Sequence record: SRR31156797_362
Reading direction: 5' to 3' (one strand)
Length of the DNA stretch: 29,003 nt
The notes under the pieces were generated by a model, which was given only the letters and a program-made list of their open reading frames with translations, did no database searches and was not told the DNA's origin. Positions within the stretch are counted from its first letter, which is position 1. Every line of letters starts with the position of its first letter. Shown here piece after piece: positions 220-28,724 of the stretch. A program made the position numbers and the translations under genes.

Positions 220-2466
220 CTACCTATAATAGAGGTTGCGTCCACCAATTGTCAGGAAAGCCTGATGCAGATTTTTACGAATGTCCTTACGGCTCCACAC
301 GCCTTGAATGTGACCTCGGGAAAGGCCTTTGTAGCAATTGTGGTAGTCGGGCGGTATTTCAATGCCTGTGGTTTCCTTGATAACACCGGGGCCAGCAAAG
401 CCCAAGCGTGAGGAACGGACTGCGTATTGGTACGGAGAACATCCAAGGAAGGATGCAACTGGACCGGCATACGAGTTGGTATCGTACAGCACAATATACA
501 GTCCACCTTCTTCAATGTACTTACGGACCGCCATGGTGCAGCGTGGCATTTGAATAAGGCCGTTAACGCCTTCCTGAATGCGAATACCCGCTGTGCCGTG
601 TACATAGGCGAGAAACGGTTGATGTTTTGTCTGTGCCAGTTCCAGAGCGCGAATGAACTTCTCGCCCTCGGCTGCGCCCACTGAGCCGCCTCGGAAGTTT
701 GCGATCAATGTAGCACAGGTGACATTAATCCCTTCAAGACTAGCATTGAACGTCATGCAGCTTGATTGCAGGCCTGTTTTTTCCTTGGCAGCGTCAACGC
801 GTGCGTCGAAGTTCGGGAATTTCGTGGGATTGCCTGCCGCGATGTCGCGGTTGAATTCACGCAAAGAGCCTTTATCAAAGAGGTTATGCAGATACCACTG
901 GTATTCCATTGGGAAGTTGTAACCACAATGAGGGCAGACACCGGCGAAATCAGTAAACAAATCTTTAGCCCAAATATCGAGACAACCACGCTTCGAGGCG
1001 TGCGGGCAAGTAACTTCTCTGTCGATATTTGCTTGAGGGCTTATATAACCATTATCATTGGTTACCGTAGGCTCTGTTTCTTGTGTTGTAGACAGCCCCG
1101 TCAGCTCCATTTCCTTCTGTTTGTCACCTTCAGCCTTGATGCCCACTTTTTTGAGCACTGTCTTTACAACGGAATCGACCTTGCCGGTGACGACATGAAT
1201 TTCATCAGTAGCTTCTTCCACAATACGCCCAATACGCTGACGGAAGGGTTTAACTAATCCGTACACGAGCAGGCTTGAAGTGTTGGAAACGATGCCGGAA
1301 CTTGTTGCAGTCAGTTTATCCATCAAGGATCGATTGTCCTGATAAGCATGCTGAGCGAGTCTGCGGTATTTTTTGAAGCGTTTGGCAATCAGGCGTTCTC
1401 GTGCGGTTTCATTGAGGGACCAGCGAACGATAATATCCGTATGTCGCTTGAAATGACGCATGGCCATGGCGCGAAATAAACGAACGCCACGAACGCCAAG
1501 AGCCACTTCATCTGTGGCGCGAACGATTTGTTCTCGAACTTGTTTGTAGAAATCGAAATGATCGGCGCGAGCACCGAGCGGCGGTTCTTCTATGATCTCA
1601 TCAATGTAACCATTTTTCAGGTTGTCCTGAGCTGTGATGCGTTGTGCCAATGCACAGGATTCAATAAGCTCAACAGGTGCACGTTGAGAGCCTCGGATAC
1701 GGCCTTCAATGGCAGCAGCTCCTTCGGGAGAAATGACTGAATAATATCCATGGGAAAGCATCAGGCGTTTGTCAGCCATGCCGATGGCTTCTGCGCCACC
1801 GGAACCGCCTTCTGAAAAGATGGCGATAATGGGAACAGGAAGCCCTGCCATTTCATATATATTTTCAGCTATTTGCTGGGCTGCACCCGGAAAATCTTCA
1901 ACAGGGTAAGAGCCGGGCGTATTCACGTAGGCGTGGATGGGGATTTGTTCCCGAGCAGCAACCTTCATGTACTTCAAGGCCTTGCTGTTGCCCCATGGTT
2001 TGATGGAGCCACCATTACGAAATTCTTCGCCGTGGCCTTTTTCTTGCCCCACAACCATAACCGGCTGGTTAATGATCTTTTTGCCACGACGCCGAGTGAT
2101 GTACGCTCTGGCGATAAGCATGCCGGGGTCAATAGAATGTTCGTCTTGCCCACCGATTTCAGTGTAGTTATCGTAGACGTTTTCAAGGATATCCTTGAGG
2201 CATGCACGTTGAGGATGACGAACAATTCGCACCTTATCCATGGCTGTAAGCTGCGTGTCGATGGCGGATTCCATGGCAATCAATCGAGCGTCCAATGAGT
2301 CCAGTGCCCGATTTTTTAACTCTTCGGACAGGTCATTGTTTTTTTCGGAGAACGAACTGATTTCCGTGGTAAAAGCATCCAACTCAGGCCGGGGAGCGCC
2401 GCCAAGGATATCGCGGGCATAATTAACCCGTTCCTGAAGTCCCTGCAATTTCTTTTCTATATTCAT
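220..2466 (-). CDS. accA/accD: Acetyl-CoA carboxylase carboxyltransferase, fused alpha (N-terminal) and beta (C-terminal) subunits
   Basis: AccA motifs (VRIVRHPQR, GQEKG, NTPGSYP, EGGSGGA, YSVISPEG), then an AccD Zn-ribbon (CPHASKRGC...VCPHC) and F.GGS.G..EGEK, GIRIQEG, GFAGPGVI. Start moved to the ATG at 2466 (MNIEKK), 4 nt after the accC stop. Confidence 0.9.
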   Translation of the reverse strand: MNIEKKLQGLQERVNYARDILGGAPRPELDAFTTEISSFSEKNNDLSEELKNRALDSLDARLIAMESAIDTQLTAMDKVRIVRHPQRACLKDILENVYDNYTEIGGQDEHSIDPGMLIARAYITRRRGKKIINQPVMVVGQEKGHGEEFRNGGSIKPWGNSKALKYMKVAAREQIPIHAYVNTPGSYPVEDFPGAAQQIAENIYEMAGLPVPIIAIFSEGGSGGAEAIGMADKRLMLSHGYYSVISPEGAAAIEGRIRGSQRAPVELIESCALAQRITAQDNLKNGYIDEIIEEPPLGARADHFDFYKQVREQIVRATDEVALGVRGVRLFRAMAMRHFKRHTDIIVRWSLNETARERLIAKRFKKYRRLAQHAYQDNRSLMDKLTATSSGIVSNTSSLLVYGLVKPFRQRIGRIVEEATDEIHVVTGKVDSVVKTVLKKVGIKAEGDKQKEMELTGLSTTQETEPTVTNDNGYISPQANIDREVTCPHASKRGCLDIWAKDLFTDFAGVCPHCGYNFPMEYQWYLHNLFDKGSLREFNRDIAAGNPTKFPNFDARVDAAKEKTGLQSSCMTFNASLEGINVTCATLIANFRGGSVGAAEGEKFIRALELAQTKHQPFLAYVHGTAGIRIQEGVNGLIQMPRCTMAVRKYIEEGGLYIVLYDTNSYAGPVASFLGCSPYQYAVRSSRLGFAGPGVIKETTGIEIPPDYHNCYKGLSRGHIQGVWSRKDIRKNLHQAFLTIGGRNLYYR

Positions 2467-2470
2467 AGTA

Positions 2471-3889
2471 TTAGAATTCAAGCAAATTTTCTGTTTTCTC
2501 AATGAGGAAGGGAATGTTGGACTTCATGCCAGCACCGCTTGAGTCCCCGCCGTTGAGTTTCAGGTCGTTCAAGAATTCCAGACCGCGCTTCTTTGCCTCT
2601 TCCAAATCCTTGCCCCAAATAATGGCCAATGCCAGGTTGGGGTCGTATTCTGTGGGGATTTGGTATGTTCGATCTAAAGGAACATGCGTATGCATGCTCA
2701 ACCAGTCGCAGTCGGTCCATTTTAGTTCTTCAATCTTGCCAACCCATGGAGTGAAGCCTTGAGTCGTGTCTTCGGCGATGAGGCGGTATTCAATGCTGAC
2801 GCCGTCAAAGGAAACGTCATCCTGCGTATAACCGAGATCCTCACCAAGGCCGATGCGAATCTGTTCACGAATGAGATTGACGTCCTTGTTGCCCTGTGTT
2901 GAAGCGATGCAAGCCGAAACGCCGTTTTCCACCTGAATACGAGTATTCACTTCCATAAGAAAGGGCTCGCCATTGGGGGTTACAATCCATTCCCATGTAC
3001 CGACGTTGTCGTATTTGATTTCGCGAGCGATCGAGAGGGAATATTCAGTAATGTCATCCATCAGCTTCTGGGCATCAAAACTGTATTGCAGATCTTCAGG
3101 TCGGAATCCGGGGGCAACTTCAATGCGTTTTTGCAGGCCTGGACTTTGAACGGAGCAATTACGAGTCCCGAAGTGTACTGGGTTGATACCGGTTCGGTCT
3201 GAGGCTATCTGTACTTCAAGATGATTGAAGTTAAATACGCGCTGTTCAATAAGGACGCCTTCATCATTAAATGTACGAAGCGAGTAGTTGCGAATTCGAC
3301 GGTAGGTTTGTCTGAAACGAGCCATGTCTTCGACTTCATCGATGCCCATGCCTCCGCCGCCGGCGGATGCCTTTACCAAAACGACCGGACGAGAAATGCC
3401 CATTTTCGTCTGGAATTCAAAGAGGCTCTCGGCAATGGCTTCAGCTTCCATTTCATCATATATTGCACGGTCAGAACCGGGGACAGTCGGTACCCCAATT
3501 TTGCGTGCTAGTCGTTTGGTATTAATTTTGTCGCCAAGGTCGCGAATAACTTCCCATGAAGGGCCAATAAAGGTCATGGGACGATCTCGTTCTACTACCC
3601 GTCTGGCAAAACGGTAGTTTTCCGAAAAGAATCCGTATCCCGGATGGACAGCGGTTGCACCGGATTCGTCGGCTACGGAAAGGATATCACCGGCATCAAG
3701 ATAGTTATGAATGCGGTAGAGTGATTTTTCGCCGCCCAGTCTTTTGGCAACATCAATATGACCGGACTGTGAATCTTCTTCTGTATACAGAGCGACAAAC
3801 TGAACGCCTAAATCGGAACATGCTTCCATGATCCGAACAGCTATTTCGCCCCGGTTGGCAATGAGTACTTTATTTCCCTGAATGCTCAC
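2471..3889 (-). CDS. accC: Biotin carboxylase
   Basis: KVLIANRGEIAVRI, HPGYGFFSEN, KASAGGGGMG, RNCSVQ...QKRIE, FLMEVNTRIQVE; GTG start. Confidence 0.92.
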   Translation of the reverse strand: MSIQGNKVLIANRGEIAVRIMEACSDLGVQFVALYTEEDSQSGHIDVAKRLGGEKSLYRIHNYLDAGDILSVADESGATAVHPGYGFFSENYRFARRVVERDRPMTFIGPSWEVIRDLGDKINTKRLARKIGVPTVPGSDRAIYDEMEAEAIAESLFEFQTKMGISRPVVLVKASAGGGGMGIDEVEDMARFRQTYRRIRNYSLRTFNDEGVLIEQRVFNFNHLEVQIASDRTGINPVHFGTRNCSVQSPGLQKRIEVAPGFRPEDLQYSFDAQKLMDDITEYSLSIAREIKYDNVGTWEWIVTPNGEPFLMEVNTRIQVENGVSACIASTQGNKDVNLIREQIRIGLGEDLGYTQDDVSFDGVSIEYRLIAEDTTQGFTPWVGKIEELKWTDCDWLSMHTHVPLDRTYQIPTEYDPNLALAIIWGKDLEEAKKRGLEFLNDLKLNGGDSSGAGMKSNIPFLIEKTENLLEF

Positions 3890-12582: not shown

Positions 12583-13989
12583 TCAATCCCTTGATATTCC
12601 GTGCTGTTTGATGAGGACATAAAATCGAGCGCGAGAAATTCCTGCGACTTCGCATGATTTTTTGACATCCCCCCCGGTTATATCAAATAGATTAAGAAGA
12701 TACCGTTTTTCCATTTCTTCATACTGAAGATTTCGATACTCTTTGAGAGTCGGGAAATCTTGTGGATCAATACGTAAGTGGTCCTGATGTTCTTCTCTAC
12801 TGATTCCTTTTTCCATATCACGACGAGCAATTTCCGCACGGATGGCACGTGGCAGGTGACGAGGGTAAAGTATCGATTCTTTGCCAGCTCGTGAAAGGGC
12901 TTGCTCAATGGTGTTTTGAAGTTCTCGGATGTTGCCTGGCCATTTATAGTTCATCAGTGCATCTAAGAAATCAGGCGAAAATCCTTTGCTCGCCATTTTA
13001 AGTCGTTTGGAATGATGCTGAATGAATTTACATGTCAATTCGTTAATGTCTTCGGTGATTGATCGAAGTGGCGGAAGTTGCATGCGGATACCGCGCAGCC
13101 GATAAAAGAGATCTCGCCGGAAGTCTGCTTTTTCAACCATGGCCTCAAGGTTTCGATTGGTTGCTGCTACAAGACGAAAATTACTCTGGATTTCCTTCAT
13201 GCCACCAACAGGACGAAAGCTTCGTCCTTCCAGTACACGCAGAAAAACTTTTTGCAGGGACATCGGCAATTCTCCTACTTCATCAAGAAAGAGAACACCG
13301 CTGTCAGCTTGTTTGACTAACCCCACGGAATTTCTATCCGCGCTAGTATATGCTCCGCGTTCATGACCAAAGAGAAGGTTCTCTGCCAAAGTGTCTGGTA
13401 GGGCAGCACAGTCAACAACAATAAAAGGATTTGCTGCTCGTTCACTGTTTTTGTGGATGGCTCGTGCGAAAAGTTCTTTGCCTGTTCCGGTTTCTCCAGT
13501 GATAAGAACATTTGCATCTGAACTTGCAGCATGCGCCAGTGTATCCAGACAAGACTGAAGCAAGCGACTATTGCCTATGATACCGGAACGCCGCAAAGAA
13601 CATCGGATGCCCCCGCTATATCGCTCTTCATGATATTCTATAACCCGTTTTATAAGAACGAGAAGTCGCTGCATATTCGGTGGTTTGGTGATGTAGTTCC
13701 ACGCACCGTTTTGAATAGCCAGTTCAGCCATGTCAGGATTTCGGCTACGGGAAATGACAATGACTTCAGGAAAGGACGGAATTTCTCTGATTGTTGCGAG
13801 GTAAGCTAGACTGTCACCATCCGCAAGATCATCTCCAAGCAGTACAGCCTTGTAGTCTCCGGTGTGAAGCAGGCCCATCGCACGTGACAATGTATCACAG
13901 TCTGCCGTCGGTAGACCGTGTGTTGCAAGAGCTTTACCCAAGGCTTGAGTAAACCTCCTGTCTCCATCAATAATGAGAATTTCGGCCAT
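12583..13989 (-). CDS. Sigma54-dependent enhancer-binding protein (NtrC-like REC-AAA+-Fis HTH) with an atypical receiver
   Basis: Start MAEILIIDGD at 13989 (SD GGGAG); Walker A GETGTGKE; GAYTSA (GAFTGA variant); LFLDEVGE; FRRDLFYRL; WPGNIREL; C-terminal HTH. The phospho-Asp position is Gly52 (VLLGDD). Confidence 0.92.
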   Translation of the reverse strand: MAEILIIDGDRRFTQALGKALATHGLPTADCDTLSRAMGLLHTGDYKAVLLGDDLADGDSLAYLATIREIPSFPEVIVISRSRNPDMAELAIQNGAWNYITKPPNMQRLLVLIKRVIEYHEERYSGGIRCSLRRSGIIGNSRLLQSCLDTLAHAASSDANVLITGETGTGKELFARAIHKNSERAANPFIVVDCAALPDTLAENLLFGHERGAYTSADRNSVGLVKQADSGVLFLDEVGELPMSLQKVFLRVLEGRSFRPVGGMKEIQSNFRLVAATNRNLEAMVEKADFRRDLFYRLRGIRMQLPPLRSITEDINELTCKFIQHHSKRLKMASKGFSPDFLDALMNYKWPGNIRELQNTIEQALSRAGKESILYPRHLPRAIRAEIARRDMEKGISREEHQDHLRIDPQDFPTLKEYRNLQYEEMEKRYLLNLFDITGGDVKKSCEVAGISRARFYVLIKQHGISRD

Positions 13990-14120
13990 GACGTAATTCT
14001 CCCTCTTCCTACAAAGAAGTCCCCACATAATTATACCATGAATTGTGCGGGAATTGTCAAATCTGTCTACATCTTGAAATTGTTGAAGAAAAAAACATAT
14101 CGTTTTGAGAGAGTTAAAAA

Positions 14121-14280
14121 GTCTCGTCTGACAAGACACACAACGCTCTTTGAAGCATGAGAGACTCTTGAGAGTCCTCGCACAATCTTTTGCAAATAAT
14201 TTCATCTTATGAATGGCAGGGGACTCTCTTCAAGGTGAGGATGTGTCTTGTTTTGCAAGACTCATCTTGTACGAGAAGAC
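14121..14280. promoter_or_regulatory. Candidate enhancer (UAS) sites, GTCT-N9-AGAC x3
   Basis: GTCTcgtctgacaAGAC (14121-14137), GTCTTGttttgCAAGAC (14245-14261), ATCTtgtacgagaAGAC (14264-14280); the last two lie about 90-125 bp upstream of the -24 element. Confidence 0.55.
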
Positions 14281-14367
14281 GTTTTAAGCCTGATTTTCAA
14301 GGGAAAACAGCATGTCTGCCAATAGACTCTCTCTCCATCAATCGAGAATATCTATACAACTCGAAAG

Positions 14368-14383
14368 CGGTACGCATCTTGTT
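14368..14383 (+). promoter_or_regulatory. Candidate sigma54 -24/-12 promoter of the hdr operon
   Basis: CGGTACGCATCTTGTT versus consensus TGGCACGNNNNTTGCW; correct GG-N10 spacing, with GT instead of GC at -12. Confidence 0.6.
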
Positions 14384-14523: not shown

Positions 14524-14847
14524 TGTGAACGCCCCGGAAAAGAGAAGACAAGGGAATACGGCAAGGAGGTATCACGAATGCGGCGCAAATGGGATGCACG
14601 GAAAAAAGCAAAGATCGTCTTGGAAGGCCTTATGGGAGGGTGCGTTAATGACTTGTGTCGCTCCCACGACCTGCGACCCGGACAGTATTACAAGTGGCGA
14701 GGGCAATTCCTGGAACAATGCCATCAGGTTTTTGAAAAGCGACCGAATCTGTCGAGTGAATCAGAGTTGGTGGCTGAAAATGAAGAACTCAAAAAACTGG
14801 TGGGTGAACTGACTTTGGAACTGACCAGCGGCAAGAGTAGTCGTTGA
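14524..14847 (+). mobile_element. IS3-family remnant: left-IR-like sequence plus orfA; no orfB, no right IR
   Basis: TGTGAACGCCCCGGAAAAGAGAAGACA resembles IS3-family left ends (TGAACCGCCCCGG...GAGAC type) and lies about 50 bp before an OrfA-like ORF; no DDE integrase ORF follows. Confidence 0.55.
14578..14847 (+). CDS. IS3 OrfA-like helix-turn-helix/leucine-zipper protein (89 aa), first gene of the hdr operon
   Basis: MRRKWDARKKAKIVLEGL...VNDLCRSHDL...QYYKWRGQFL...ENEELKKLVGELTLE; perfect SD AAGGAGGT; stop 22 nt before the hdrA ATG. Confidence 0.8.
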   Translation: MRRKWDARKKAKIVLEGLMGGCVNDLCRSHDLRPGQYYKWRGQFLEQCHQVFEKRPNLSSESELVAENEELKKLVGELTLELTSGKSSR

Positions 14848-14869: not shown

Positions 14870-16894
14870 ATGGGCAACAAAATCGGAGTATACATCTGTC
14901 ACTGCGGTTCGAACATCGCGGGAAAGGTCGATTGCGAAGACGTGGCCAGGTATGCCGGAAAACTCAAGGACGTGGCGGTCTCTCGAGACTACCAATTCAT
15001 GTGTTCGGACCCGGGACAGGAAATGGTTATCAAGGATATCCGCGAATATGGGCTCAACAGGGTCGTCGTGGCATCCTGTTCACCGCGTCTGCATGAAAAG
15101 ACTTTTCAGAAGGCCTGTGCACGGGCTGGGTTAAATCCCTATCTCATGCAACACGCATGTATTCGGGAACATTGTTCATGGACAACCGCTGATCCGGATG
15201 AAGCGACAGCCAAGGCCAAGCATATTGTCGAAGCGGCCGTTGATAGAGTGGGCGATCACGAGAAACTCTTTTCACGCGAAGTGGATGTCCTGCCGGATGT
15301 CATGGTCGTTGGTGCTGGCATCGCCGGTATTCAGGCGTCCCTTGATATCGCCAAATCAGGACATAAGGTTCATTTGGTTGAAAAAAGTCCGTCAATTGGT
15401 GGGCATATGGCCCAGTTCGACAAGACATTTCCTACATTGGATTGTGCAGCCTGTATTTCCACTCCCAAGATGGTGGCGGTATCGCAGGAACCGAACATTA
15501 ATCTGATGACTTGGAGTGAAGTTGAGGACGTTTCCGGTTTTGTCGGGAATTATACAGTAACCGTGAAGCACAAGCCTCGGTATGTGAACGAAGCTGTCTG
15601 TACCGGCTGCGGAGCCTGTCTGGAAAAGTGTCCAACCAAAGCTTTGAACGAGTTCAACGAAGGGCTTTCCATGCGAAAGGCCATTTATCGGAATTCGCCA
15701 CAGGCCGTACCGAGTACGCCGGTCATCGATGGTTCTATCTGTAAAAAGATTACTAAAGATAAATGTGGAATATGTCAGACCATATGTCCTACTGGAGCCA
15801 TCGATTATACTATGAAGGAGACTCATGAAGTCTTTAATGTCGGTTCCATTGTACTGGCTACCGGATACGATGCCATGGACCCGACACCATTGTACGAATA
15901 CGGCTTTGGTCGATTCGACAATGTGTACACTGCGTTACAATTCGAACGGCTTAACAACGCAGTTGGTCCCACCGAGGGAAAGATTATCTTGAAGAATGGC
16001 GAGGCGCCCAAAAGTGTCGGCATAATTCATTGTGTGGGCAGCCGTGATAAAAACTATCACGAATACTGTTCGCGCACCTGTTGCATGTACGCCCTCAAAT
16101 TTGACCATCTTATCAAGGATAAAGTCGGACACGATACCAAGGTGTACAATTTTTACATTGATATGAGGTGCTTCGGCAAGGGGTACGAAGAGTTCTTCAA
16201 GCGTGTTCAAGAGGAAGGTGTGACCTTTATTCGGGGGCGTCCAGCTGAAGTTGTCGAAGAAGATGACAAGCTGGTGATCGTTGGTGAAGACACCTTACTC
16301 GGGATGAATGTGCGTGTACCTGTGGACATGGTCATTCTGTGCACTGCCATGGAAGCGCGTAAAGATGTCACTGAAGTGGCCCGTATATTTGGTGTGGCTC
16401 AAGGGCAGGATGGATTCTTCCTTGAAGAACATCCCAAGTTGGGTCCGGTTTCTACCGCGACCGATGGTGTGTTTCTTGCCGGAGCCTGTCAGGGACCAAA
16501 AGATATTCCAGATGCCGTTGCTCATGCTTCAGGTGGTGCAGCGCAAGCTCTTGCGCTTGCTGCCAAGGGGACTGTTTCCATATCTCCGACAACTTCGTGG
16601 ATCGACCCGGACGTCTGCATCGGATGCAAGGTGTGTATTAATCTGTGCCCGTACTCAGCCATTGAGTTTGACGAACGGCGACAGATATCGGTTATCAACG
16701 AAGCAATGTGTAAGGGCTGTGGCAGCTGTGCAGGGTATTGCCCAAGTGGGGCCGCGCAGATCAAGCACTTCAATCAGACTCAGATATTCAATGAAATCGA
16801 CGGAATGCTTGGCATGATGTTTGACCTTGTGCCTCCTGAGGCCGAGGGACAAAGAGCTGAGGCAGTCAGTGATAATCAACCGGGCGAAGCCTAG
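14870..16894 (+). CDS. hdrA: Heterodisulfide reductase subunit A
   Basis: IGVYICHCG, VVASCSPRLHE, IREHCSW, VGAGIAG, DKTFPTLDCAAC, inserted ferredoxin, QFER, HCVGSRD..CSRTCCMYALK, C-terminal 2x[4Fe-4S]. Confidence 0.95.
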   Translation: MGNKIGVYICHCGSNIAGKVDCEDVARYAGKLKDVAVSRDYQFMCSDPGQEMVIKDIREYGLNRVVVASCSPRLHEKTFQKACARAGLNPYLMQHACIREHCSWTTADPDEATAKAKHIVEAAVDRVGDHEKLFSREVDVLPDVMVVGAGIAGIQASLDIAKSGHKVHLVEKSPSIGGHMAQFDKTFPTLDCAACISTPKMVAVSQEPNINLMTWSEVEDVSGFVGNYTVTVKHKPRYVNEAVCTGCGACLEKCPTKALNEFNEGLSMRKAIYRNSPQAVPSTPVIDGSICKKITKDKCGICQTICPTGAIDYTMKETHEVFNVGSIVLATGYDAMDPTPLYEYGFGRFDNVYTALQFERLNNAVGPTEGKIILKNGEAPKSVGIIHCVGSRDKNYHEYCSRTCCMYALKFDHLIKDKVGHDTKVYNFYIDMRCFGKGYEEFFKRVQEEGVTFIRGRPAEVVEEDDKLVIVGEDTLLGMNVRVPVDMVILCTAMEARKDVTEVARIFGVAQGQDGFFLEEHPKLGPVSTATDGVFLAGACQGPKDIPDAVAHASGGAAQALALAAKGTVSISPTTSWIDPDVCIGCKVCINLCPYSAIEFDERRQISVINEAMCKGCGSCAGYCPSGAAQIKHFNQTQIFNEIDGMLGMMFDLVPPEAEGQRAEAVSDNQPGEA

Positions 16895-16903
16895 GAGGCA
16901 GTG

Positions 16904-17329
16904 ATGAGTAGTGAATTTGAACCGACCATTCTGGCCTTTGTCTGCAATTGGTGCACCTACACCGCAGCAGATCTCGCCGGAACGTCGAGAATGGTACAAC
17001 AGCCAAATTTACGATTAGTACGCGTTATGTGTACCGGCATGGTGGACCCTAAGTACATTGTGAAGTCGCTCCTTTCCGGGGCTGACGGAGTGCTTGTCAG
17101 TGGGTGTCATCCCGGTGATTGCCATTATATCAACGGCAACTACAAAGCCCGGCGTCGGGTTAAGCTTCTCAATGAAATCCTGCCTCAGTTTGGTGTTGAA
17201 CGGGAGCGCGTCAAGCTGACTTGGGTGGGAGCGAGTGAAGGGAATGAATTTGCGGAAACGGTAAATTCTTTCATTAACGAAATCAGAGAACTCGGTCCCA
17301 TGGAAGCGCGTTCCATGGCCGTGGTTTAG
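16904..17329 (+). CDS. mvhD: MvhD/FlxD [2Fe-2S] subunit
   Basis: FVCNWCTYTAADLAG, RVMCTG, GADGVLVSGCHPGDCHY; SD AGGAGG. Confidence 0.93.
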   Translation: MSSEFEPTILAFVCNWCTYTAADLAGTSRMVQQPNLRLVRVMCTGMVDPKYIVKSLLSGADGVLVSGCHPGDCHYINGNYKARRRVKLLNEILPQFGVERERVKLTWVGASEGNEFAETVNSFINEIRELGPMEARSMAVV

Positions 17330-17347: not shown

Positions 17348-18493
17348 ATGGCGACCACTGTGAAAATACAAGTTGAAAATAACAATCCGGTTGTGGCGAT
17401 CCAGGGCTTTTTGCGCGGCTTGCTGGAAGACGAGTCGTTAGGCGGAGTTGTGGTACCGGTCCACCTGTTCGACAAAGGAATTCCCATGCCCACACTGGTA
17501 ACTGATCCAGATCAACTTTCAGGTGCTGATCCATTAGCTCCGGCATTTCCCATGAACAGTGCAAAACTACTTTCGCGATTGACACGAGGGCAATCTGGCG
17601 AGCGCATTGCCGTTGTCATGCGACCTTGTGAGATTCGTGCATTCGTGGAGCTGGTCAAACTCAATCAGGGTAGTCTCGACGACGTCATTATCGTGGGAGT
17701 GGACTGTATGGGGGCCTACGACAACACCGGTTATAAGACTTTTGTTGGTGATCGGGATTCGTTTGAGGCAACGCTCGCCTTCCAAGGGCAACATGGTGGA
17801 GCGAATGAAACTGCGGTGAACGGCGTGGATATCGCTCCGGCCTGTAAATCCTGTGAATTCCCGGCTCCAACCAATGCGGATATCGTTATTGGAATTGCCG
17901 GTGCAGATCTGCACGATGCTATTCCTGTCATGGCTGACAGTGCGCGAGGCGAAGCTTTGCTTAATAGCCTTGGATTACCCGACATGGAAACCAATGGGCG
18001 CGACGCGGTACTCGAATCGCTTATCAAGGTCCGTACTGAACATCGTGACGCCATGATTGAAGCAACTCAGGCTGCTACCGGAACATTGTCGGACTTGTCG
18101 GAATATCTGTCGAGTTGCGTGAACTGCTACAACTGTCGAGTGGCCTGTCCGGTCTGCTACTGCAAGGAATGTGTGTTTAATACGGACGTGTTTGAACACA
18201 AGCCGTGGCAATACCTGGGCTGGGCCAAGCGTAAGGGAAGCCTCAAGCTGCCCACAGATACCATCTTCTACCATCTGACCCGTATGGCGCACATGTCCAT
18301 GGCCTGTGTCGGGTGTGGGCAGTGCTCCAATGCCTGTCCTAACGGCATTCCTGTAATGGAGTTGTTCCGTACAGTCGCAGCGCGGACACAGAAGAGCTTT
18401 GATTACGAACCGGGCAGAAGTCTGGAAGAGTCGCCACCGCTTTCGGTTTTCAAGGAAGACGAGTTCCAGGACACAGTGTCACACATGGCCTGA
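17348..18493 (+). CDS. FdhB/FrhB-like (F420 hydrogenase/dehydrogenase beta-like) Fe-S protein with a 2x[4Fe-4S] domain
   Basis: AVVMRPCEIRAFVELVKLNQ..LD...VGVDCMG, ACKSC, CVNCYNCRVACPVCYCKEC, CVGCGQCSNACP. Confidence 0.8.
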   Translation: MATTVKIQVENNNPVVAIQGFLRGLLEDESLGGVVVPVHLFDKGIPMPTLVTDPDQLSGADPLAPAFPMNSAKLLSRLTRGQSGERIAVVMRPCEIRAFVELVKLNQGSLDDVIIVGVDCMGAYDNTGYKTFVGDRDSFEATLAFQGQHGGANETAVNGVDIAPACKSCEFPAPTNADIVIGIAGADLHDAIPVMADSARGEALLNSLGLPDMETNGRDAVLESLIKVRTEHRDAMIEATQAATGTLSDLSEYLSSCVNCYNCRVACPVCYCKECVFNTDVFEHKPWQYLGWAKRKGSLKLPTDTIFYHLTRMAHMSMACVGCGQCSNACPNGIPVMELFRTVAARTQKSFDYEPGRSLEESPPLSVFKEDEFQDTVSHMA

Positions 18494-18521: not shown

Positions 18522-21500
18522 ATGAGGAAGCAATACGGAGCAATGGTGGTAGGCGCAGGAATCGGTGGTATACGCGCCGCCCTCGACCTGGCCGTTACCG
18601 GTCACAAGGTCGCTCTTATCGACCGCCGTCCAAATCACGGTGGAATCTTGAGTCAACTTGACCACCAATTCCCGTCTGATCATTGTGGCATGTGTAAAAT
18701 GCTGCCGCTTATGTCACGGGATTCATCCAGCCAGTATTGTCTGCGCAAAGGGCTGTTTCACGATAATATTGATATTATGCTCTCCACCGAAGTGGCAGAA
18801 GTTGAAGGTGAGCCGGGCAAATTCTTTGTCTCTTTAAACCGAACTTCCCCCTTGGTGGACCCGACAAAATGTGTCAGTTGCGGCAAATGTTCCGAAGTTT
18901 GCCCAGTGCGTGTGGACAGTGAATTCAACGCCGGATTAACTCAGCGAGCGGCTATTTATCTGCCGGTTCCGCACGCCATCCCCAATCAGTATGTGCTGGA
19001 TTTGAACAACTGCCTGCGTTGTTGGAAGTGTCATGAAGTGTGTCCTACCGGGGCCATTGATTTCAAATTCGAAGAGCGCAAGGATTTTCATATCCTTGTG
19101 GTTGATCGAGATGAAATGGTTCAGGAAATGATGCAGGGAAGTCTCGATGAACAGAATTTTCCCCTTCATTTTACCGCAAGTGGGCGTGAGGCTGTGGACC
19201 AACTCGCTGAAACCGATCAATTTAGACTTGTCCTGCTTGGATTAAATATCAATGACATGGACGCTGAACGTGTCCTGACACGTTGTCAGGAACTTCATCC
19301 AGATATGCCAGTGGTCATTTTGGCAGACAGTAGTCAGGAAGAGACTGCTTCAGCTCTTGTTATGCAGGGTGCACGTGAATATTTGACTAAGCCATTGACT
19401 GCAAAGAAATTTGTGCCGTGGCTCGATAAATTGTTCGTGCGTATTCTGTCCGACACAGTCGAGGAACTGGAAGTCGGAGCTATTGTCTTGGCTGGTGGAT
19501 TTGAGTGTTATGATCCGAAGACCGATCCTTCCGCTTCGTCGGAAATTTGGAATTATGATCACCCCGGCGTACTCACGGCGGTAGAATTCGAACGACTTCT
19601 AAGCGGAACCGGTCCTACCGGCGGTAAGTTGTTGCGTCCCGGTGATGACAAGCCCGTCAAAAAGATTGCATGGATTCAATGTGTCGGCTCACGCGATGTG
19701 CAGAGGAATGCGGACTTCTGTTCTGGTATATGCTGTATGTTTTCCATCAAGGAATCATTGCTCGCTAAAAAAGTGACCAATGGTGCTGTGGAGACCTCCA
19801 TCTTTTACATGGACATGCGTACGGCAGGAAAGGGGTATCAACGCTATCGCATCAATGCTGAAAAGGAAGAGGGCGTGCGTTTTGTTCGCAGCCGTCCTCA
19901 TTCCCTCTTGCCGACGGATAACGGGCAGGACATCAAGCTTGAGTACTTTGCCGAAGACGGGACTATGGTCACTGAAATCTATGACATGGTTGTTTTGGCC
20001 GTGGGCGCTCGTCCGCCAAAGAATACAGACACCTTCGCGCAAACTATCGGCATTGATCTTAATCAATGGGGTTTTGCAGATACGCAACCGTATTCACCGG
20101 AACGTACAAGCGCGGTCGGTATTTTTGCCGCCGGGGCGTTTGGTGAACCCAAGGACATCTCCGAATCCGTGATTCATGCAGGAGCAGCAGCGCAAGCCGC
20201 GTCCCGCATCATCAAGGCATATGACGTGCTGGCGGGTATTGAGGACGAACCTGAACCCGAGTTCCCAGACGTTTCGCGTGAACCACCTCGTACATTGGTG
20301 GCAGTCTGTGCATCCTGTCCTACTTTGGAGCAATCTGTGGATATCGAAGCGTTGAGTCTGCGTATGGCCAATGTGCATTCGGTATGCAAGGTTGTAAGTG
20401 TAGGAAGTGCCTGCACCGTAGAAGGGTGGGGCGATATTGAACAGGCGGCCATAGAGTTTAAGCCGAACCGTATTATCATCGGTGCGTGTATGCCTTACGC
20501 CTACATTCCCCGTCTCAAGGAATTGGGCAAGACCATTGGTTTGAATCCCGCACTTATGGATGTGGTGGATATTTATACACCGACCTTTGGCCCGGAAACA
20601 AACGCACGAACAGCGGAGAAGGAAATTTACGCATCCTTGTCCACGGCTGTTGCTCGGTTGCAAGGAGTCGACCCAACACCGCCACCCAATATGGTTGATG
20701 TAGAACGATCGGCTCTGGTTGTTGGCGGAGGGTTGGCAGGCATGACAGCAGCCATGTCCATTGCAGATCAGGGTTACGGAGTTTGTTTAGTTGAATCCGA
20801 GGAAGAACTCGGGGGCATGGCTATGCGACTGCATACACAACTCGATGGTTCCGATCCTCACAAGTACATGGAAGAACTGATCGCGCAGGTGGAAAAGCAT
20901 CCGAATATCAAGGTGCTTAAGGATTCCCGAGTCGTGCTGTCTCGAGGCAGTGCAGGACGGTTCCGTTCAGCCATCGCCAGCCCGGAAGGAGTCTTCCCGC
21001 TTGAGCATGGTGTATCCATCCTCGCTACAGGCGCACACGAGGCCAAGGTCTATGAAAGTGGTCTGTGCGTACACAAGTCGGTGATGACTCATTTCGCATT
21101 GGAAGAACAGCTAGCTACAGGTCAGCTTGATGCAGGCATACTCTCTTCGGTTGCCATGATTCAGTGTTGGCGCAAACCCGGTGAGGACCGCACCTATTGC
21201 AGCAAGGTCTGTTGCCCGGAAATGGTCAAGAATGTGCTTGCTCTCAAGGAGCGCAACCCCGATTTACCGATATACGTGTTCTACCGTGATATCATGATGC
21301 CTGGTTTCCTTGAGACCTACTACACGCAGGCGCGGAAGGCCGGAGCCATTTTCATTCGATATGAACAAGATGAACCTCCACAGGTAAAATTTGAGGAAGG
21401 CAAACCGGTTATTACGGCCTACGACCCCATTCTCAGAGAAAATATCGTTCTTAGGCCGGATATCCTGTCACTTTCGAGTGGTATGGAACCTAATGACATG

Positions 21501-21981: not shown

Positions 21982-22548
21982 ATGAGCGAAGCAATAAGAA
22001 AAACATGGATCCCGGCCAGAGATGAAATCGAGTTCGTGCTCGCCCAATTAAAGGAAGAAGTTGGGGCCTGCATGCAGTGCGGCACCTGTACAGCGTCCTG
22101 TCCTAATGGGTTCGCTATGGATATAACTCCGCGGGCTATGTGGCGGATGATTCAGTTTGGCATGCTCGACGAGATACTTGAGAGTCATACCTTCTGGATG
22201 TGTTCGTCCTGTTACACCTGCACACTGCGGTGTCCACGAGGTCTCAAACTCACTTCGGTTATGGCTTCTCTGAAGAGACTGGCCATGCTCAGTGGCAAAG
22301 GTCGTAAGAACAGTGCGTTCTATAGAGCGTTCATGGAAAACGTCGAGTCACATGGTCGGGTGCAGGAAATGGGCATGATGAGCAATTACTTCTTCAAACG
22401 CATGGATAACCCGACGCTACCGCTCAAGTTTGTACCGCTGGGTATGAAGATGATGGCCAAGGGCAAAGTACATATGCCGGGTGGCGGTCAGGGCGGAGTG
22501 CTGAAGCCTATGTTCGCCAAGGCGCGAGAGATGGAGGGATTGTCATGA
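21982..22548 (+). CDS. hdrC: Heterodisulfide reductase subunit C
   Basis: CMQCGTCTASCP...PR..WRMIQFG...WMCSSCYTCTLRCPRG; ATG at 21982 behind GGAGG. Confidence 0.9.
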   Translation: MSEAIRKTWIPARDEIEFVLAQLKEEVGACMQCGTCTASCPNGFAMDITPRAMWRMIQFGMLDEILESHTFWMCSSCYTCTLRCPRGLKLTSVMASLKRLAMLSGKGRKNSAFYRAFMENVESHGRVQEMGMMSNYFFKRMDNPTLPLKFVPLGMKMMAKGKVHMPGGGQGGVLKPMFAKAREMEGLS

Positions 22549-23498
22549 AATACGCATACTACCCAGGTTGTTCTTTGACTGAAAGTGCGACGGAGTTTGA
22601 TATCTCTACGCGTGCAGTCATGGATTATCTTGGTGCCGAATTGATCGAAATTCCAGACTGGACCTGTTGCGGCGCGAGTGCAGCCGAGCCTGTGAGCAAG
22701 CTCATGAATTATGCGCTTCCGGCACGGAACCTTGCCCTTACTGAAAAGGAACTTGATGGCATTGATGTGATTGCGCCGTGTTCCGCCTGTTATCTTAACC
22801 TCCTCAAGGTTAACAAGGAAGTAGTTGGAGACAGGAGCCTACATGGCAAGGTGAATGAAGTGCTGGCTGCGTCTGGTTTGACTTATTCCGGCAAGGTGGA
22901 AGTACGACATATTCTCGATGTTCTCATCAATGATGTCGGGGCAAAAATTATTGAACAGAAGGTGACCAACAATCTTGAGGGCATGAAGATCGCCCCATAT
23001 TACGGGTGTCAGATCTTACGACCATACCCGGTGTTTGATGATCCCAAGAACCCTACATCCATGCATCGTGTTCTTACGGCATTGGGTGCAGAAGTGCATG
23101 AGTGGGATCACGGAAACAAATGTTGCGGTGCATCGCTCATGATGGGGCATCGCGATGTGGCGCTTCAATCTGTTGCAGCAATACTCGCTGACGCAGAGGG
23201 CGCGGATGCCATCGCTACAGTCTGTCCATTGTGCCAGATGAATCTTGAGGCATATCAGTCGCAGGCGCAGAAACTTGGAGCCAAACCTATCCCCATTCTC
23301 TATCTGACACAATTGATGGGCGAAGCCTTTGGGCTGGAGGATGGGGCCATTCAATTCGAGAAAAACCTGACCATATCGGCTGGGGTCAGGAGGGATATCG
23401 CCAACAAGGTCTGGAGCCAGCCGAACCAGACCGAAAGCGGCGACGATATGGCGGAAGCAAAGGCGGATAACCTCAGCAAGGGGGCAAGTCATGTTTAA
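22545..23498 (+). CDS. hdrB: Heterodisulfide reductase subunit B
   Basis: YAYYPGCSL, DWTCCG, APCSAC, APYYGC, KCCG, TVCPLCQMNL; ATGA overlap with hdrC. Confidence 0.93.
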   Translation: MKYAYYPGCSLTESATEFDISTRAVMDYLGAELIEIPDWTCCGASAAEPVSKLMNYALPARNLALTEKELDGIDVIAPCSACYLNLLKVNKEVVGDRSLHGKVNEVLAASGLTYSGKVEVRHILDVLINDVGAKIIEQKVTNNLEGMKIAPYYGCQILRPYPVFDDPKNPTSMHRVLTALGAEVHEWDHGNKCCGASLMMGHRDVALQSVAAILADAEGADAIATVCPLCQMNLEAYQSQAQKLGAKPIPILYLTQLMGEAFGLEDGAIQFEKNLTISAGVRRDIANKVWSQPNQTESGDDMAEAKADNLSKGASHV

Positions 23499-24393
23499 GG
23501 ACATCATCGTAGGAGTCACTCCTACCGGAATCGACAATTGCGCGGTTCAGGCAGCAATGGAATTCGCTCGTAAGTTCGAGTCCAAGCTTTACCTCGTTCA
23601 CGTAGCGGGCATGGCTCAGGGCTGGGGCTCCATCGAAACCCTGGAACCTTCGGGTGAAACTTCTCGGCTCAAGGAACAGATCTCTGAAACCTATGCGGAA
23701 ATGCTTGAGGGCATCCCGGAATCACAAATCATTGTCGTACCGGGTATCCCACACAACGAAATTCTGCGTCTTGCACGAAAGAAGAACACTGATCTTATCG
23801 TCATGGGACCGCACACCAAGGAATACGAGGAGACCCGTTCCAAGATGTGGGGTATGACAGGCAGTACGCTCGAACGCGTTAGCCAGAAGGCCCGCTGTCC
23901 GGTCATGATCGTTCATAAGGACGTTGTCTGCAAGGAACCGCTGTATAGCAACATCCTTGTGGCAACCGACTTCTCTGATCAAGCTGAATGCGCCGTAAGT
24001 TACGGCGGCCAGATGGCCCGTCAGTACAAGGCCAATCTCAAGATCATGCATGTCGTGGAAAATGGAAACAGTCGTTCTGAAGTCATCGGTCGATTGGAAG
24101 ATGAATATGGTCCTCGCCTTGATGGTATCGGCGAATGCGGTTTCGAGGCCTGTCGCGGCAAGCCTTCCATGGAAATTCTGCGCATGGGGAATCAGGCCGA
24201 TGCAGACTTGATCATCATGGCTCACCATTCCAAGGAACGTGACCCAGAAAAGGCTTTCCTTGGGTCGACAGTTACTCAGGTGGCATTGAATGCACCGTGT
24301 CCGACCATGAGCGTCAACCGTCACTTCGATCTGCGTTGTGGTCTTATGTACGACCAGACAGGCGCAGCTGTTCAGACAGAGGCCTTGGCCTAG
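23491..24393 (+). CDS. Tandem universal stress protein (2x USP)
   Basis: FKDIIVG...LYLVHV...DLIVMG...GSTLERV..KARCPVMIV, then ILVATDFS...DLIIMA...LGSTVTQVALNAPCPTMSV. Confidence 0.9.
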   Translation: MFKDIIVGVTPTGIDNCAVQAAMEFARKFESKLYLVHVAGMAQGWGSIETLEPSGETSRLKEQISETYAEMLEGIPESQIIVVPGIPHNEILRLARKKNTDLIVMGPHTKEYEETRSKMWGMTGSTLERVSQKARCPVMIVHKDVVCKEPLYSNILVATDFSDQAECAVSYGGQMARQYKANLKIMHVVENGNSRSEVIGRLEDEYGPRLDGIGECGFEACRGKPSMEILRMGNQADADLIIMAHHSKERDPEKAFLGSTVTQVALNAPCPTMSVNRHFDLRCGLMYDQTGAAVQTEALA

Positions 24394-24500: not shown

Positions 24501-25796
24501 ATGGGTGAAGCAGCGCTTCTTATCGAGCCGAAGCAATCGGAACTGGTGGACAAGGTCCGGGAACTGCTGCCCGAGGGCGGTAATCTGAATATGTGTCTCA
24601 CGTGTGGAGCCTGCTCTGCCGGATGTCCTGCTACGGGTATGGAAGACATGGACCCTCGTAAATTTCTGCGTTTAGCACTTATGGGGCAGGAAGAGGCAAT
24701 TCGTTCGACATCCTGGGTGTGGCTGTGCACCATGTGTCGGCGGTGCGTTCATGCGTGCCCCATGGAAGTGGATATCCCTCAACTGATCTACCAATGTCGT
24801 CAATCATGGCCAAGGGAAGATCGTCCGAAGGGAATACTTGGTTCCTGTGAGCAGGCATTGAACACTCCGGGCAACAGCGCCATGGGTGCATCCAGCGACG
24901 ATTTTAAATTCGTGGTCGAGGATGTGGCCGAAGAAGTTCGTGAAATGCAGCCTGGTCAGGAAAATATTCAAGTCTCTGTAGACAGAAAGGGCGCCTATTA
25001 TTTCCTTAATCAAAACTCTCGTGAACCAGTGACCGAACCTGACGAAATGGTTCCGCTTTGGAAGATACTTAATCTGGTTGGCGCGGATTGGACCTACAGC
25101 ACTAAAGGTTGGGCCGCAGAAAATTACTGCATGTTCCTAGCCGATGATGACGCATGGGAAAACGTGGTGCGCAACAAGGCAGGAGCCGTGGAAGAGTTGG
25201 GGTGCAAGGTCTGGCTCAATACGGAGTGAGGACACGAATTTTATGCAGTCCGGGCTGGACTGCAAAAGTTTAATGTCGAACACGACTTCGAGATGGAAAG
25301 CATCATCCGGCTGTATGCCCAGTGGATTCGTGAGGGCAAGCTGCCAGTCAATTCCGATTGGAACAAGGACTTGGGTGTGACCTTCACGGTTCAGGACCCG
25401 TGTCAGCTTGTACGGAAATCACTGGGTGATCCGGTGGCCGAGGACCTTCGTTTTGTGGTCAAATCCGTTGTCGGTGAAGAGAATTTCATCGATATGTGGC
25501 CGAATAAATCCAACAATTACTGTTGCGGTGGTGGCGGTGGATTCCTTCAGTCAGGTTTTGCGGACGAACGGCGTAAATACGGTCAGATCAAGCTCGACCA
25601 GATTCTTCGCACCAAGGCAGACTATTGTATCGCGCCATGTCACAACTGCCATTCTCAGATTCATGATCTCAGTGAATACTCCGGCGCACACTTTCCGGTA
25701 GTTCACCTCTGGACGCTCATTTGTCTTTCGCTTGGTATCCTCGGCGAAAACGAACGTGAATATCTCGGAGATGATTTGAAGAATGTAGGGTTGTAG
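24501..25796 (+). CDS. HdrD/DsrK/GlpC-like (Fe-S)-binding CCG protein, selenoprotein (Sec243), 431 aa
   Basis: Track ORFs 24501-25229 and 25293-25796 are one frame joined through UGA 25227-25229: WLNTE-U-GHEFYAVRAGLQKFNVEHDFE-MESII, i.e. the ECGH motif. Also CLTCGACSAGCP, CTMCRRCVHACP, QDPC, YCCGGGGG, APCHNC. Confidence 0.9.
25244..25264 (+). promoter_or_regulatory. Bacterial SECIS element
   Basis: Perfect 8-bp stem TGCAGTCC-GGGCT-GGACTGCA; the G-rich loop begins 22 nt after the UGA. Confidence 0.8.
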
Positions 25797-27674: not shown

Positions 27675-28724
27675 TTACGTGCGAGCAATTCGTTTCTGAT
27701 TCTTTTTACTTTTAAAACGCTCTTGTATCCTAGGATACTGAGGAGATTGGCCCACTCCTTCAACAATGAAAAGTTCTTCTAACATCTCAGCGGCACTCAC
27801 TAATGCAGACTGCGTATTCAGTTTTACAAGCTCATATCGATAGTCATGTCCATGAGGTAACTTTAACAATAAACACGGATGACCTTTATGATGTTCTAGT
27901 GATATAAATGTAGCATTTTCATCTTGGACTATATCTCTCAGTTCGTAGGCAATTCGATCTGCAAACATTCTTGTATCAATTGGCGTACGAGCCATTGTAT
28001 TTCCATTAAGAACCATTCTGGCTTGTCCTTGGCTGTCTGCAAAATGAATATTTACTCCATTGGTTTTCAGGTTTTTTATATCTTGGGGGCTAGGTTGATC
28101 TGTGAAAGAGGGCAAAATTCCTTTCATAACGGGACACAACGAATCAGCAACAACTGGAAGTTCAGTCTCTAGCACATTGAAAATAGGGTTTTCTTTCGAT
28201 TCGATATACATGTCAGAGTGGCAACCTATAGCAAGTAATGTTATTTCATGCGTATGAAATAAAGCATATACGAGTTGGTCATTCGTCAATTTGTTGTACC
28301 CAACATGGAAGTGTCGTATGTGCATACTGTCTGCCATAAAGTCAGCTATGAATCGCCCGGATTTGTCAAAAAAACCTTGATTGTTATGCGTAACAAACCG
28401 CTCACGTTTGTTAAGATTTGGGTTGTTGAGACGCTTATCCCCAATCTGTAAACAATCAATTAGTTCGCCAAGCTTAGTCCTAACGATAGGATCTTGTATC
28501 GCTCCTTCCTGCACGATGAAGGCTCCCGTTTTTTTTACCGAATATGGGAAAGCACGAATTTGAGATTTCATATGTCGCTTTATCACAGCAATTGACAGCC
28601 CTAAGCCCTTGCCTATTAGATGTTTCCTTTCTTGAGAAGATAGTAATTCAAGTGCTGTTTTCTCGAAGTACTTGGCTAAACCTTGGTAGACAGACATTCG
28701 CTTTATACGCTTTTTATTTGCCAT
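27675..28724 (-). CDS. Hypothetical protein (349 aa) with a YafQ/RelE-like ribonuclease motif
   Basis: Long ORF; KLGELIDCLQIG and IRHFHVG...DQLVY....EITLLAIGCHSDMY resemble the YafQ pattern KL..VI..L..G / ECHI..DWLLIY....L.L.RTG.HSDLF. Confidence 0.65.
   Translation of the reverse strand: MANKKRIKRMSVYQGLAKYFEKTALELLSSQERKHLIGKGLGLSIAVIKRHMKSQIRAFPYSVKKTGAFIVQEGAIQDPIVRTKLGELIDCLQIGDKRLNNPNLNKRERFVTHNNQGFFDKSGRFIADFMADSMHIRHFHVGYNKLTNDQLVYALFHTHEITLLAIGCHSDMYIESKENPIFNVLETELPVVADSLCPVMKGILPSFTDQPSPQDIKNLKTNGVNIHFADSQGQARMVLNGNTMARTPIDTRMFADRIAYELRDIVQDENATFISLEHHKGHPCLLLKLPHGHDYRYELVKLNTQSALVSAAEMLEELFIVEGVGQSPQYPRIQERFKSKKNQKRIART

Follow-up and report, generated by a model that had tools for sequence, protein, structure and literature searches.

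The tandem HdrA encoded in the window (the whole stretch of 29,003 nucleotides analyzed, from sequence record SRR31156797_362) carries, right behind its inserted ferredoxin domain, a pseudo-receiver, i.e., a domain with a predicted receiver fold and no phospho-acceptor aspartate. The insert is a conserved family trait, and in Desulfobacterales-type relatives the receiver at the same place is fully canonical, which the original prediction, made from this DNA alone, had missed. We give an even chance to the reading that the insert descends from a phospho-switch and has been locked into the role of a structural brace for the inserted ferredoxin, the predicted low-potential electron exit.

Positions 19086 to 19448 (plus strand, residues 189–309) are translated without a stop within the open reading frame that begins at ATG 18522, which is preceded by a GGAGG ribosome-binding site. 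A Pfam scan finds Response_reg at residues 191–297 (E = 5.3e-14 when the full-length protein is scanned and 8.9e-16 with just the insert), exceeding the curated cut-off. In the AlphaFold2 model of the full-length protein (mean pLDDT 85.7, pTM 0.85), residues 190–310 adopt the (beta-alpha)5 topology of five alternating strands and helices, with a pLDDT of about 86–91. When the insert was modeled in isolation, Foldseek matched it to the NtrC1 and PmrA receivers (TM 0.83–0.87), with the NtrC1 receiver 1ny5 at E = 1.2e-9, TM 0.87, and rmsd 1.5 Å; RitR structures were also among the matches. As originally predicted, the insert directly follows the ferredoxin domain, and the HdrA upstream in the same operon aligns without any insert at the corresponding place.

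The five active-site positions are occupied by D195, R196, G240, A268, and K290, so that three of the five conserved residues are lost. The earlier reading of Gly240 at the phospho-site and of Ala in place of the switch Thr/Ser (Ala268) agrees with the receiver alignment. Compared with a canonical phospho-receiver, the domain has the predicted fold and lacks the phospho-acceptor Asp; within the acid pair, switch, and lysine, D195 and K290 are kept, and R196 and A268 deviate. A PF00072 match without the D site is how aspartate-less receivers (ALR/PsR) are defined in the available portion of PMC12632262, and the insert is such a match. According to the accessible parts of PMC12632262 and PMC4395418, these domains (e.g., RitR) have a receiver fold without the phospho-Asp, as the insert does, commonly show a Thr-to-Ala change, and make up about 4–6% of receivers; Gly-type ALRs had no characterized structure as of 2015 in the sections of PMC4395418 concerned. 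Rather than standing at the N terminus of a regulator, the pseudo-receiver of HdrA is spliced inside a domain of a redox enzyme.

The host protein is not a plain HdrA: alignment to the canonical HdrA of the operon reveals two partial HdrA units fused in one chain. Unit 1 consists of an FAD domain, the inserted ferredoxin, and the receiver, and has no C-terminal ferredoxin; it is followed by an HdrA N-domain-like segment and by unit 2, which has an FAD domain without an inserted ferredoxin and ends in a C-terminal ferredoxin. The resemblance of the intervening segment to the HdrA N-domain, in which three cysteines are invariant, is our reading of the sequence. Both FAD domains are of the thioredoxin-reductase-like type with the core cluster cysteines (C387/C400/C404/C405 and C882/C893/C897/C898), which are invariant in all 144 full-length rows of the alignment. 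In the same alignment, E357/K410 are invariant and E861/K903 nearly so; these may correspond to Glu356/Lys409 of 5ODC HdrA, a pair near the flavin that is linked to bifurcation. The single-unit HdrA models of NCBIfam score below their curated cut-offs (629 bits against 1100, 481 against 1300, and 481 against 1400). Nor is the protein an HdrL, as Pfam finds no Fer4_20, the inserted NAD(P)H-binding GltD-like domain, in the tandem HdrA; at canonical loci, Fer4_20 is found in the HdrL adjoining the tandem HdrA. The tandem HdrA is thus a fused variant, HdrA-like in its predicted working, and electron bifurcation by its complex is predicted by analogy.

The analogy is to the methanogen HdrA proteins of the Mvh-Hdr, Fdh-Hdr-Fmd, and Elp-Hdr complexes (PDB 5ODC, 7BKB, and 8RVU/8RVY), which are the top Foldseek matches of the tandem HdrA (E about 1e-42 to 1e-40). 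They share with it the FAD fold, the inserted ferredoxin, the C-terminal ferredoxin, and the cluster cysteines, and in both cases MvhD, HdrB, and HdrC are encoded alongside. Unlike the methanogen proteins, the chain in the window fuses two partial units and places a receiver behind the inserted ferredoxin, and its operon has no gene for a hydrogenase catalytic subunit. In the methanogen complexes, as described in the part of PMC12350162 available, a mobile arm that includes HdrA's N-terminal and C-terminal domains serves the FAD in the opposite HdrA copy; electrons are anticipated to leave through the inserted ferredoxin, which also binds FmdF/MvhB.

The genes of the operon and the landmarks of the receiver are collected in Table 1. 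The gene set resembles that of Syntrophobacter fumaroxidans Sfum_0819-0824 and of Desulfobacterium autotrophicum locus VIII (HdrL or HdrA, MvhD, FdhB-like FeS protein, HdrA, HdrC, and HdrB, in the accessible text of PMC5947623 and PMC2702500). These clusters have an HdrL where the window has a plain HdrA. The same sources, as far as available, report the S. fumaroxidans HdrABC/HdrL complex to be abundant with sulfate. The two HdrD-like reading frames downstream are likely one selenoprotein, because the in-frame TGA at 25227–25229 aligns with a Cys of an unsplit relative that is 61% identical.

Table 1. Features of the tandem-HdrA operon and of the receiver insert (positions in the window).
Feature	Position	Strand	Basis or remark
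Divergent sigma-54 activator with pseudo-receiver, 468 aa from ATG 13989	12583..13989	-	ORF call, Pfam
Activator Gly52, phospho-Asp position	13834..13836	-	Locus alignment, profile-profile alignment
Candidate sigma-54-like promoter GG-N10-GT, upstream of operon	14369..14382	+	Conserved among loci
89-aa HTH protein (HTH_Tnp_1-like), first gene of operon	14578..14847	+	Pfam
Canonical HdrA, without receiver insert	14870..16894	+	NCBIfam, alignment
MvhD	16901..17329	+	Pfam
FrhB/FdhB-like iron-sulfur protein	17348..18493	+	Pfam
Tandem HdrA, 1144 aa	18522..21956	+	ORF call, Pfam, NCBIfam, Foldseek, alignment
Inserted 2x[4Fe-4S] ferredoxin domain, just before receiver, contains W168	18837..19067	+	Pfam, alignment
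Pseudo-receiver (aspartate-less REC), residues 189–310 of tandem HdrA	19086..19451	+	Pfam PF00072, AF2, Foldseek
Gly240, phospho-Asp position	19239..19241	+	Codon GGA; Gly in 41/41 loci of the window's clade, all four Gly codons used
alpha3 patch R250/R254	19269..19292	+	Desulfovibrionales 76/80, 80/80; canonical group 0/77, 2/77
Ala268, switch Thr/Ser position	19323..19325	+	Receiver alignment
Lys290, conserved receiver Lys, kept	19389..19391	+	Receiver alignment
alpha5 patch W300, D302, K303, R307, S310	19419..19454	+	76–79/80 Desulfovibrionales; 0–10/77 canonical loci
HdrC-like, start inferred at internal ATG	21982..22548	+	ORF list, NCBIfam
HdrB-like	22545..23498	+	Pfam, NCBIfam
Tandem universal stress protein (Usp)	23491..24393	+	Pfam
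HdrD-like, two ORFs, likely one selenoprotein	24501..25796	+	Alignment to unsplit relative

To our reading of the literature, the tandem HdrA is of a known enzyme type, and its receiver insert is not described in the texts searched. Full-text searches returned no paper on a receiver inside HdrA, although subscription papers and supplements could mention the insert, and the word “receiver” occurs 0 times in the main texts of PMC2702500 and PMC5947623. The fusion has nevertheless been flagged already in an automatic annotation, which calls one database protein [quoted passage not shown].

A region search returned 119 proteins, 114 of them HdrA-type. Over 115 rows including the query, the receiver was canonical in 38 and had, at the phospho-site, Gly in 41, Asp within a broken pocket in 29, Ser in 3, and Ala in 2; the other 2 rows were partial. 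An alignment headed by a canonical sequence was used as the query against genome loci; the best 80 of 582 loci are mostly Desulfobacterales-type, and the canonical query biases the set toward the canonical form. Within it, all 77 scorable loci have DD/D/T/K, and the 3 others are broken or incomplete. For the window's own group, labeled Desulfovibrionales from the database names of the nearest proteins (Pseudodesulfovibrio), the genome G001 served as a stand-in for the window (92% shared words, 99% protein identity). The junction was matched in 87 of 401 genomes, in two of these no better than ordinary regulators would match, and the Desulfovibrionales set comprises 80 of 90 matched places, the 10 left out being mostly on short contigs. 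The five receiver residues are all kept in none of these 80 loci (L086–L165). Our trees were not rooted independently; we treat the canonical state as the ancestral one, given that Usp-REC fusions (about 75% identity) are the nearest free relatives of the canonical insert and that the five residues define receivers generally (PMC12632262, in the portion available).

Among the 48 canonical loci with at least 4.5 kb downstream, a kinase gene lies downstream of the canonical HdrA-REC in 46, and 34 of the loci share one 761-aa kinase, encoded on the same strand. The canonical relatives beside kinase genes may therefore be directly controlled by phosphorylation, judging from gene order. Loss of the ~761-aa kinase from the window's lineage was considered and rejected, as G001, G282, and G008 encode a full-length homolog (45%). 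Full-length homologs in Desulfovibrionales are located at L166:8995-11265, L167:9346-11637, and L168:8987-11290. The Desulfovibrionales homolog adjoins a different membrane redox operon, which we take to be of the Hmc/Tmc type, with a Usp and small receivers of its own. Since this kinase also occurs beside another operon, phosphorylation of HdrA by it cannot be assumed.

We put at slightly under even the chance that sulfate reducers contain a widespread family of HdrA-type (predicted electron-bifurcating) flavoproteins that are switched directly by His-Asp phosphorylation of a receiver at the ferredoxin exit, and that this switch is frozen in one state in Desulfovibrionales. If so, nature provides a regulated enzyme and a locked counterpart in the two groups, and the window's own protein most likely belongs to the locked kind. 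Electron-bifurcating HdrA complexes hold a central place in anaerobic energy metabolism; the stake is smaller for the window's own protein than for the family. The literature searched holds no report of two-component post-translational control of an electron-bifurcating HdrA complex. The family offers a direct test, with a receiver intact in one lineage and dead in another, both on the predicted low-potential exit domain.

In Desulfovibrionales, the receiver is under purifying selection (dN/dS 0.149, pooled over 15 close pairs) and is at the same time the fastest-evolving of six protein segments (0.149 vs 0.03–0.14). No deletion of the receiver was seen in orthologs: it is matched in 84 of 87 ortholog-bearing genomes, and, of the remaining three, G379 has an insert that is strongly decayed, while in G060 and G140 the contig stops short of it. 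Conservation of the alpha4 switch face drops from 99% in the canonical group to 45–63% in Desulfovibrionales. Conversely, the alpha3 and alpha5 patches (Table 1) and W168 of the inserted ferredoxin (75/80 vs 0/77 canonical loci) are lineage-specific, and 10 of 50 lineage-specific conserved sites fall in the receiver (129 of 1144 residues), with the reservation that such residues are confounded with ancestry, as they reflect a single split. From this move of conservation, down on the alpha4 face and up on alpha3/alpha5 and W168, we infer a fixed docking of the receiver on the enzyme or a subunit.

The brace reading would run as follows. An intact receiver would have been inserted once and would have stayed canonical in the Desulfobacterales-type group; in Desulfovibrionales, the acid pocket and the Thr would have been lost and a fixed alpha3/alpha5 surface gained, which, to judge by its conservation, would serve for docking, either to the enzyme itself or to a partner subunit. 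By the methanogen Hdr structures, the fused protein would be a covalent pseudo-dimer that has a single arm and a single exit, in which the mobile arm of unit 2 would serve the FAD of unit 1 and hand the low-potential electron to the inserted ferredoxin of unit 1. The receiver would be attached to the low-potential exit via this domain, and the loss of Asp from the activator would be a separate event, coinciding with the loss of its upstream kinase. The position of the receiver makes a role at the ferredoxin domain plausible. Several observations count against a brace. A pure brace does not obviously explain why Gly240 is fixed in 41/41 loci, together with Lys290 in 98% of the clade. The high dN/dS also speaks against it, as do distant paralogs of the tandem HdrA (about 914 aa, 35% identity), which lack a receiver, so that the architecture does not always need one.

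An alternative is a phosphorylation-independent allosteric sensor or docking site, in which the pseudo-receiver would still toggle the ferredoxin exit through a ligand or partner (ferredoxin, Usp, or the FrhB-like subunit). We regard this as rather unlikely, though it is favored by Gly240 being invariant in 41/41 loci through four different codons, with D195 and K290 kept in the Gly clade, and by new invariant alpha3 arginines that lie away from the linker helix. Also in its favor, a Usp gene comes after the operon in 77 of 81 records of the Desulfovibrionales group, the window among them, and the canonical receiver is kin to the Usp-REC fusions. Speaking against it, pocket residues are free to vary beyond the Gly clade (0–4 of five kept), and conservation of the alpha4-beta5 switch face is poor. 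As to the fusions themselves, Usp-REC-Usp at L057:15107-16423 and three other loci, the sequence similarity suggests that the insert may derive from them or that one kinase may target both. A search for shorter proteins yielded mostly contig fragments and Usp-REC fusions, and established no stand-alone form.

It is unlikely that the domain is a passive relic, retained simply for being built into the chain and having to fold, and with no specific job. In favor of a relic are the top dN/dS within the protein, the extreme decay in one genome, and the existence of paralogs without a receiver. Yet it was only once the switch had gone that the charged, surface-type residues R250, R254, D302, K303, and R307 turned near-invariant, and not one ortholog was seen to have deleted the domain.

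The original prediction raised the possibility that the two Gly pseudo-receivers, of HdrA and of the divergent activator, pair, which would make HdrA a trigger enzyme that informs the activator of its redox state. The premise of a shared Asp-to-Gly change was borne out, as HdrA Gly240 and activator Gly52 share a column in the profile-profile alignment. The activator receiver also has Gly at the second acidic position, keeps Ser80 and Lys102, and is only 22% identical to the HdrA receiver. A complex prediction of the two domains scored 0.00 (mark 0.32), which gives no answer and is not evidence either way. The gene arrangement suits a regulatory link: of the 80 loci, 77 have a scorable divergent activator linked to the operon (the exceptions being L131 and L133, with another activator, and L139, which is truncated), and a sigma-54-like GG-N10-GT pattern lies ahead of the operon in 68 of 78 loci, against 5.2 expected from shuffled sequence and 4 for the reverse strand, albeit scored on the same loci it was derived from. 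Within the window alone the motif is not enriched (9 matches vs 5.7 expected). The sigma-54 consensus has C at −12; in the candidate promoters this base is never C (T 36, A 22, G 10).

The state of the activator follows its kinase. In 32 loci, the gene directly upstream of the activator encodes a PAS-PAS hybrid kinase, assigned by orthology; the activator is canonical in 32/32 loci with it and 0/45 without it, an association that amounts to 1–2 independent events. In four kinase-less genomes tested, the search for a full-length ortholog of this kinase found none (best partial matches 222–290 bits, vs 567 for a true one). Over the 77 loci, the HdrA/activator states were Gly/Gly in 39, Asp/canonical in 25, Ser/canonical in 4, Gly/canonical in 3, Asp/Ala in 3, Gly/degenerate Asp in 2, and Asp/Gly in 1. 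Pairing would draw on the 39 Gly/Gly loci, none of which has the kinase, on both Asp losses mapping to one branch, and on the need of a kinase-less activator for another input. However, all 39 belong to a single 42-row clade that also contains the window (support 100; FastTree, protein without the receiver), and the activator tree (76 rows, full AAA match) groups the same loci. The shared Gly thus rests on one branch, i.e., one event, and is not distinguishable from coincidence.

Outside this state, nine loci are discordant, namely HdrA Gly with an intact activator and kinase (3), HdrA Gly with activator Asp (2), and HdrA Asp with activator Gly or Ala (4), and the Ser loci combine a changed HdrA with an intact activator. 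The HdrA site left Asp five times, and over five independent pairs the activator followed 0.3 times on average. The HdrA receiver is degenerate in all 80 Desulfovibrionales loci, even where the activator is intact, and the new conserved surface is present in loci with a canonical activator as well. Gly is also a common replacement, found in 11% of aspartate-less receivers (PMC4395418, in the text accessible). Altogether, the covariation survey does not support HdrA as a trigger enzyme paired with the activator, a model that we now hold to be highly improbable; with few independent events the power of the survey is low, and pairing may still occur within the one Gly/Gly clade. The matching Gly in the activator likely reflects shared ancestry rather than pairing.

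Further observations concern the activator and its surroundings. L111 and L112, nested in the Gly clade, have an activator with Asp (GAT), a broken acid pocket, and no kinase; possibly this Asp is a reversion. The 89-aa HTH_Tnp_1-like gene leads the operon in 45/45 kinase-less vs 7/32 kinase-bearing loci, counts that depend on kinship, and its product is a candidate regulator of the kinase-less activator. GAGACTC/GAGAGTC-like words, repeated at 14060–14340 between the activator and the promoter, may be putative binding sites of the activator. Elsewhere in the window, on the minus strand, there are a 349-aa reading frame without a Pfam match (27675–28724) and, at 220–3889, a fused carboxyltransferase alpha/beta gene (760 aa) that follows a biotin carboxylase gene.
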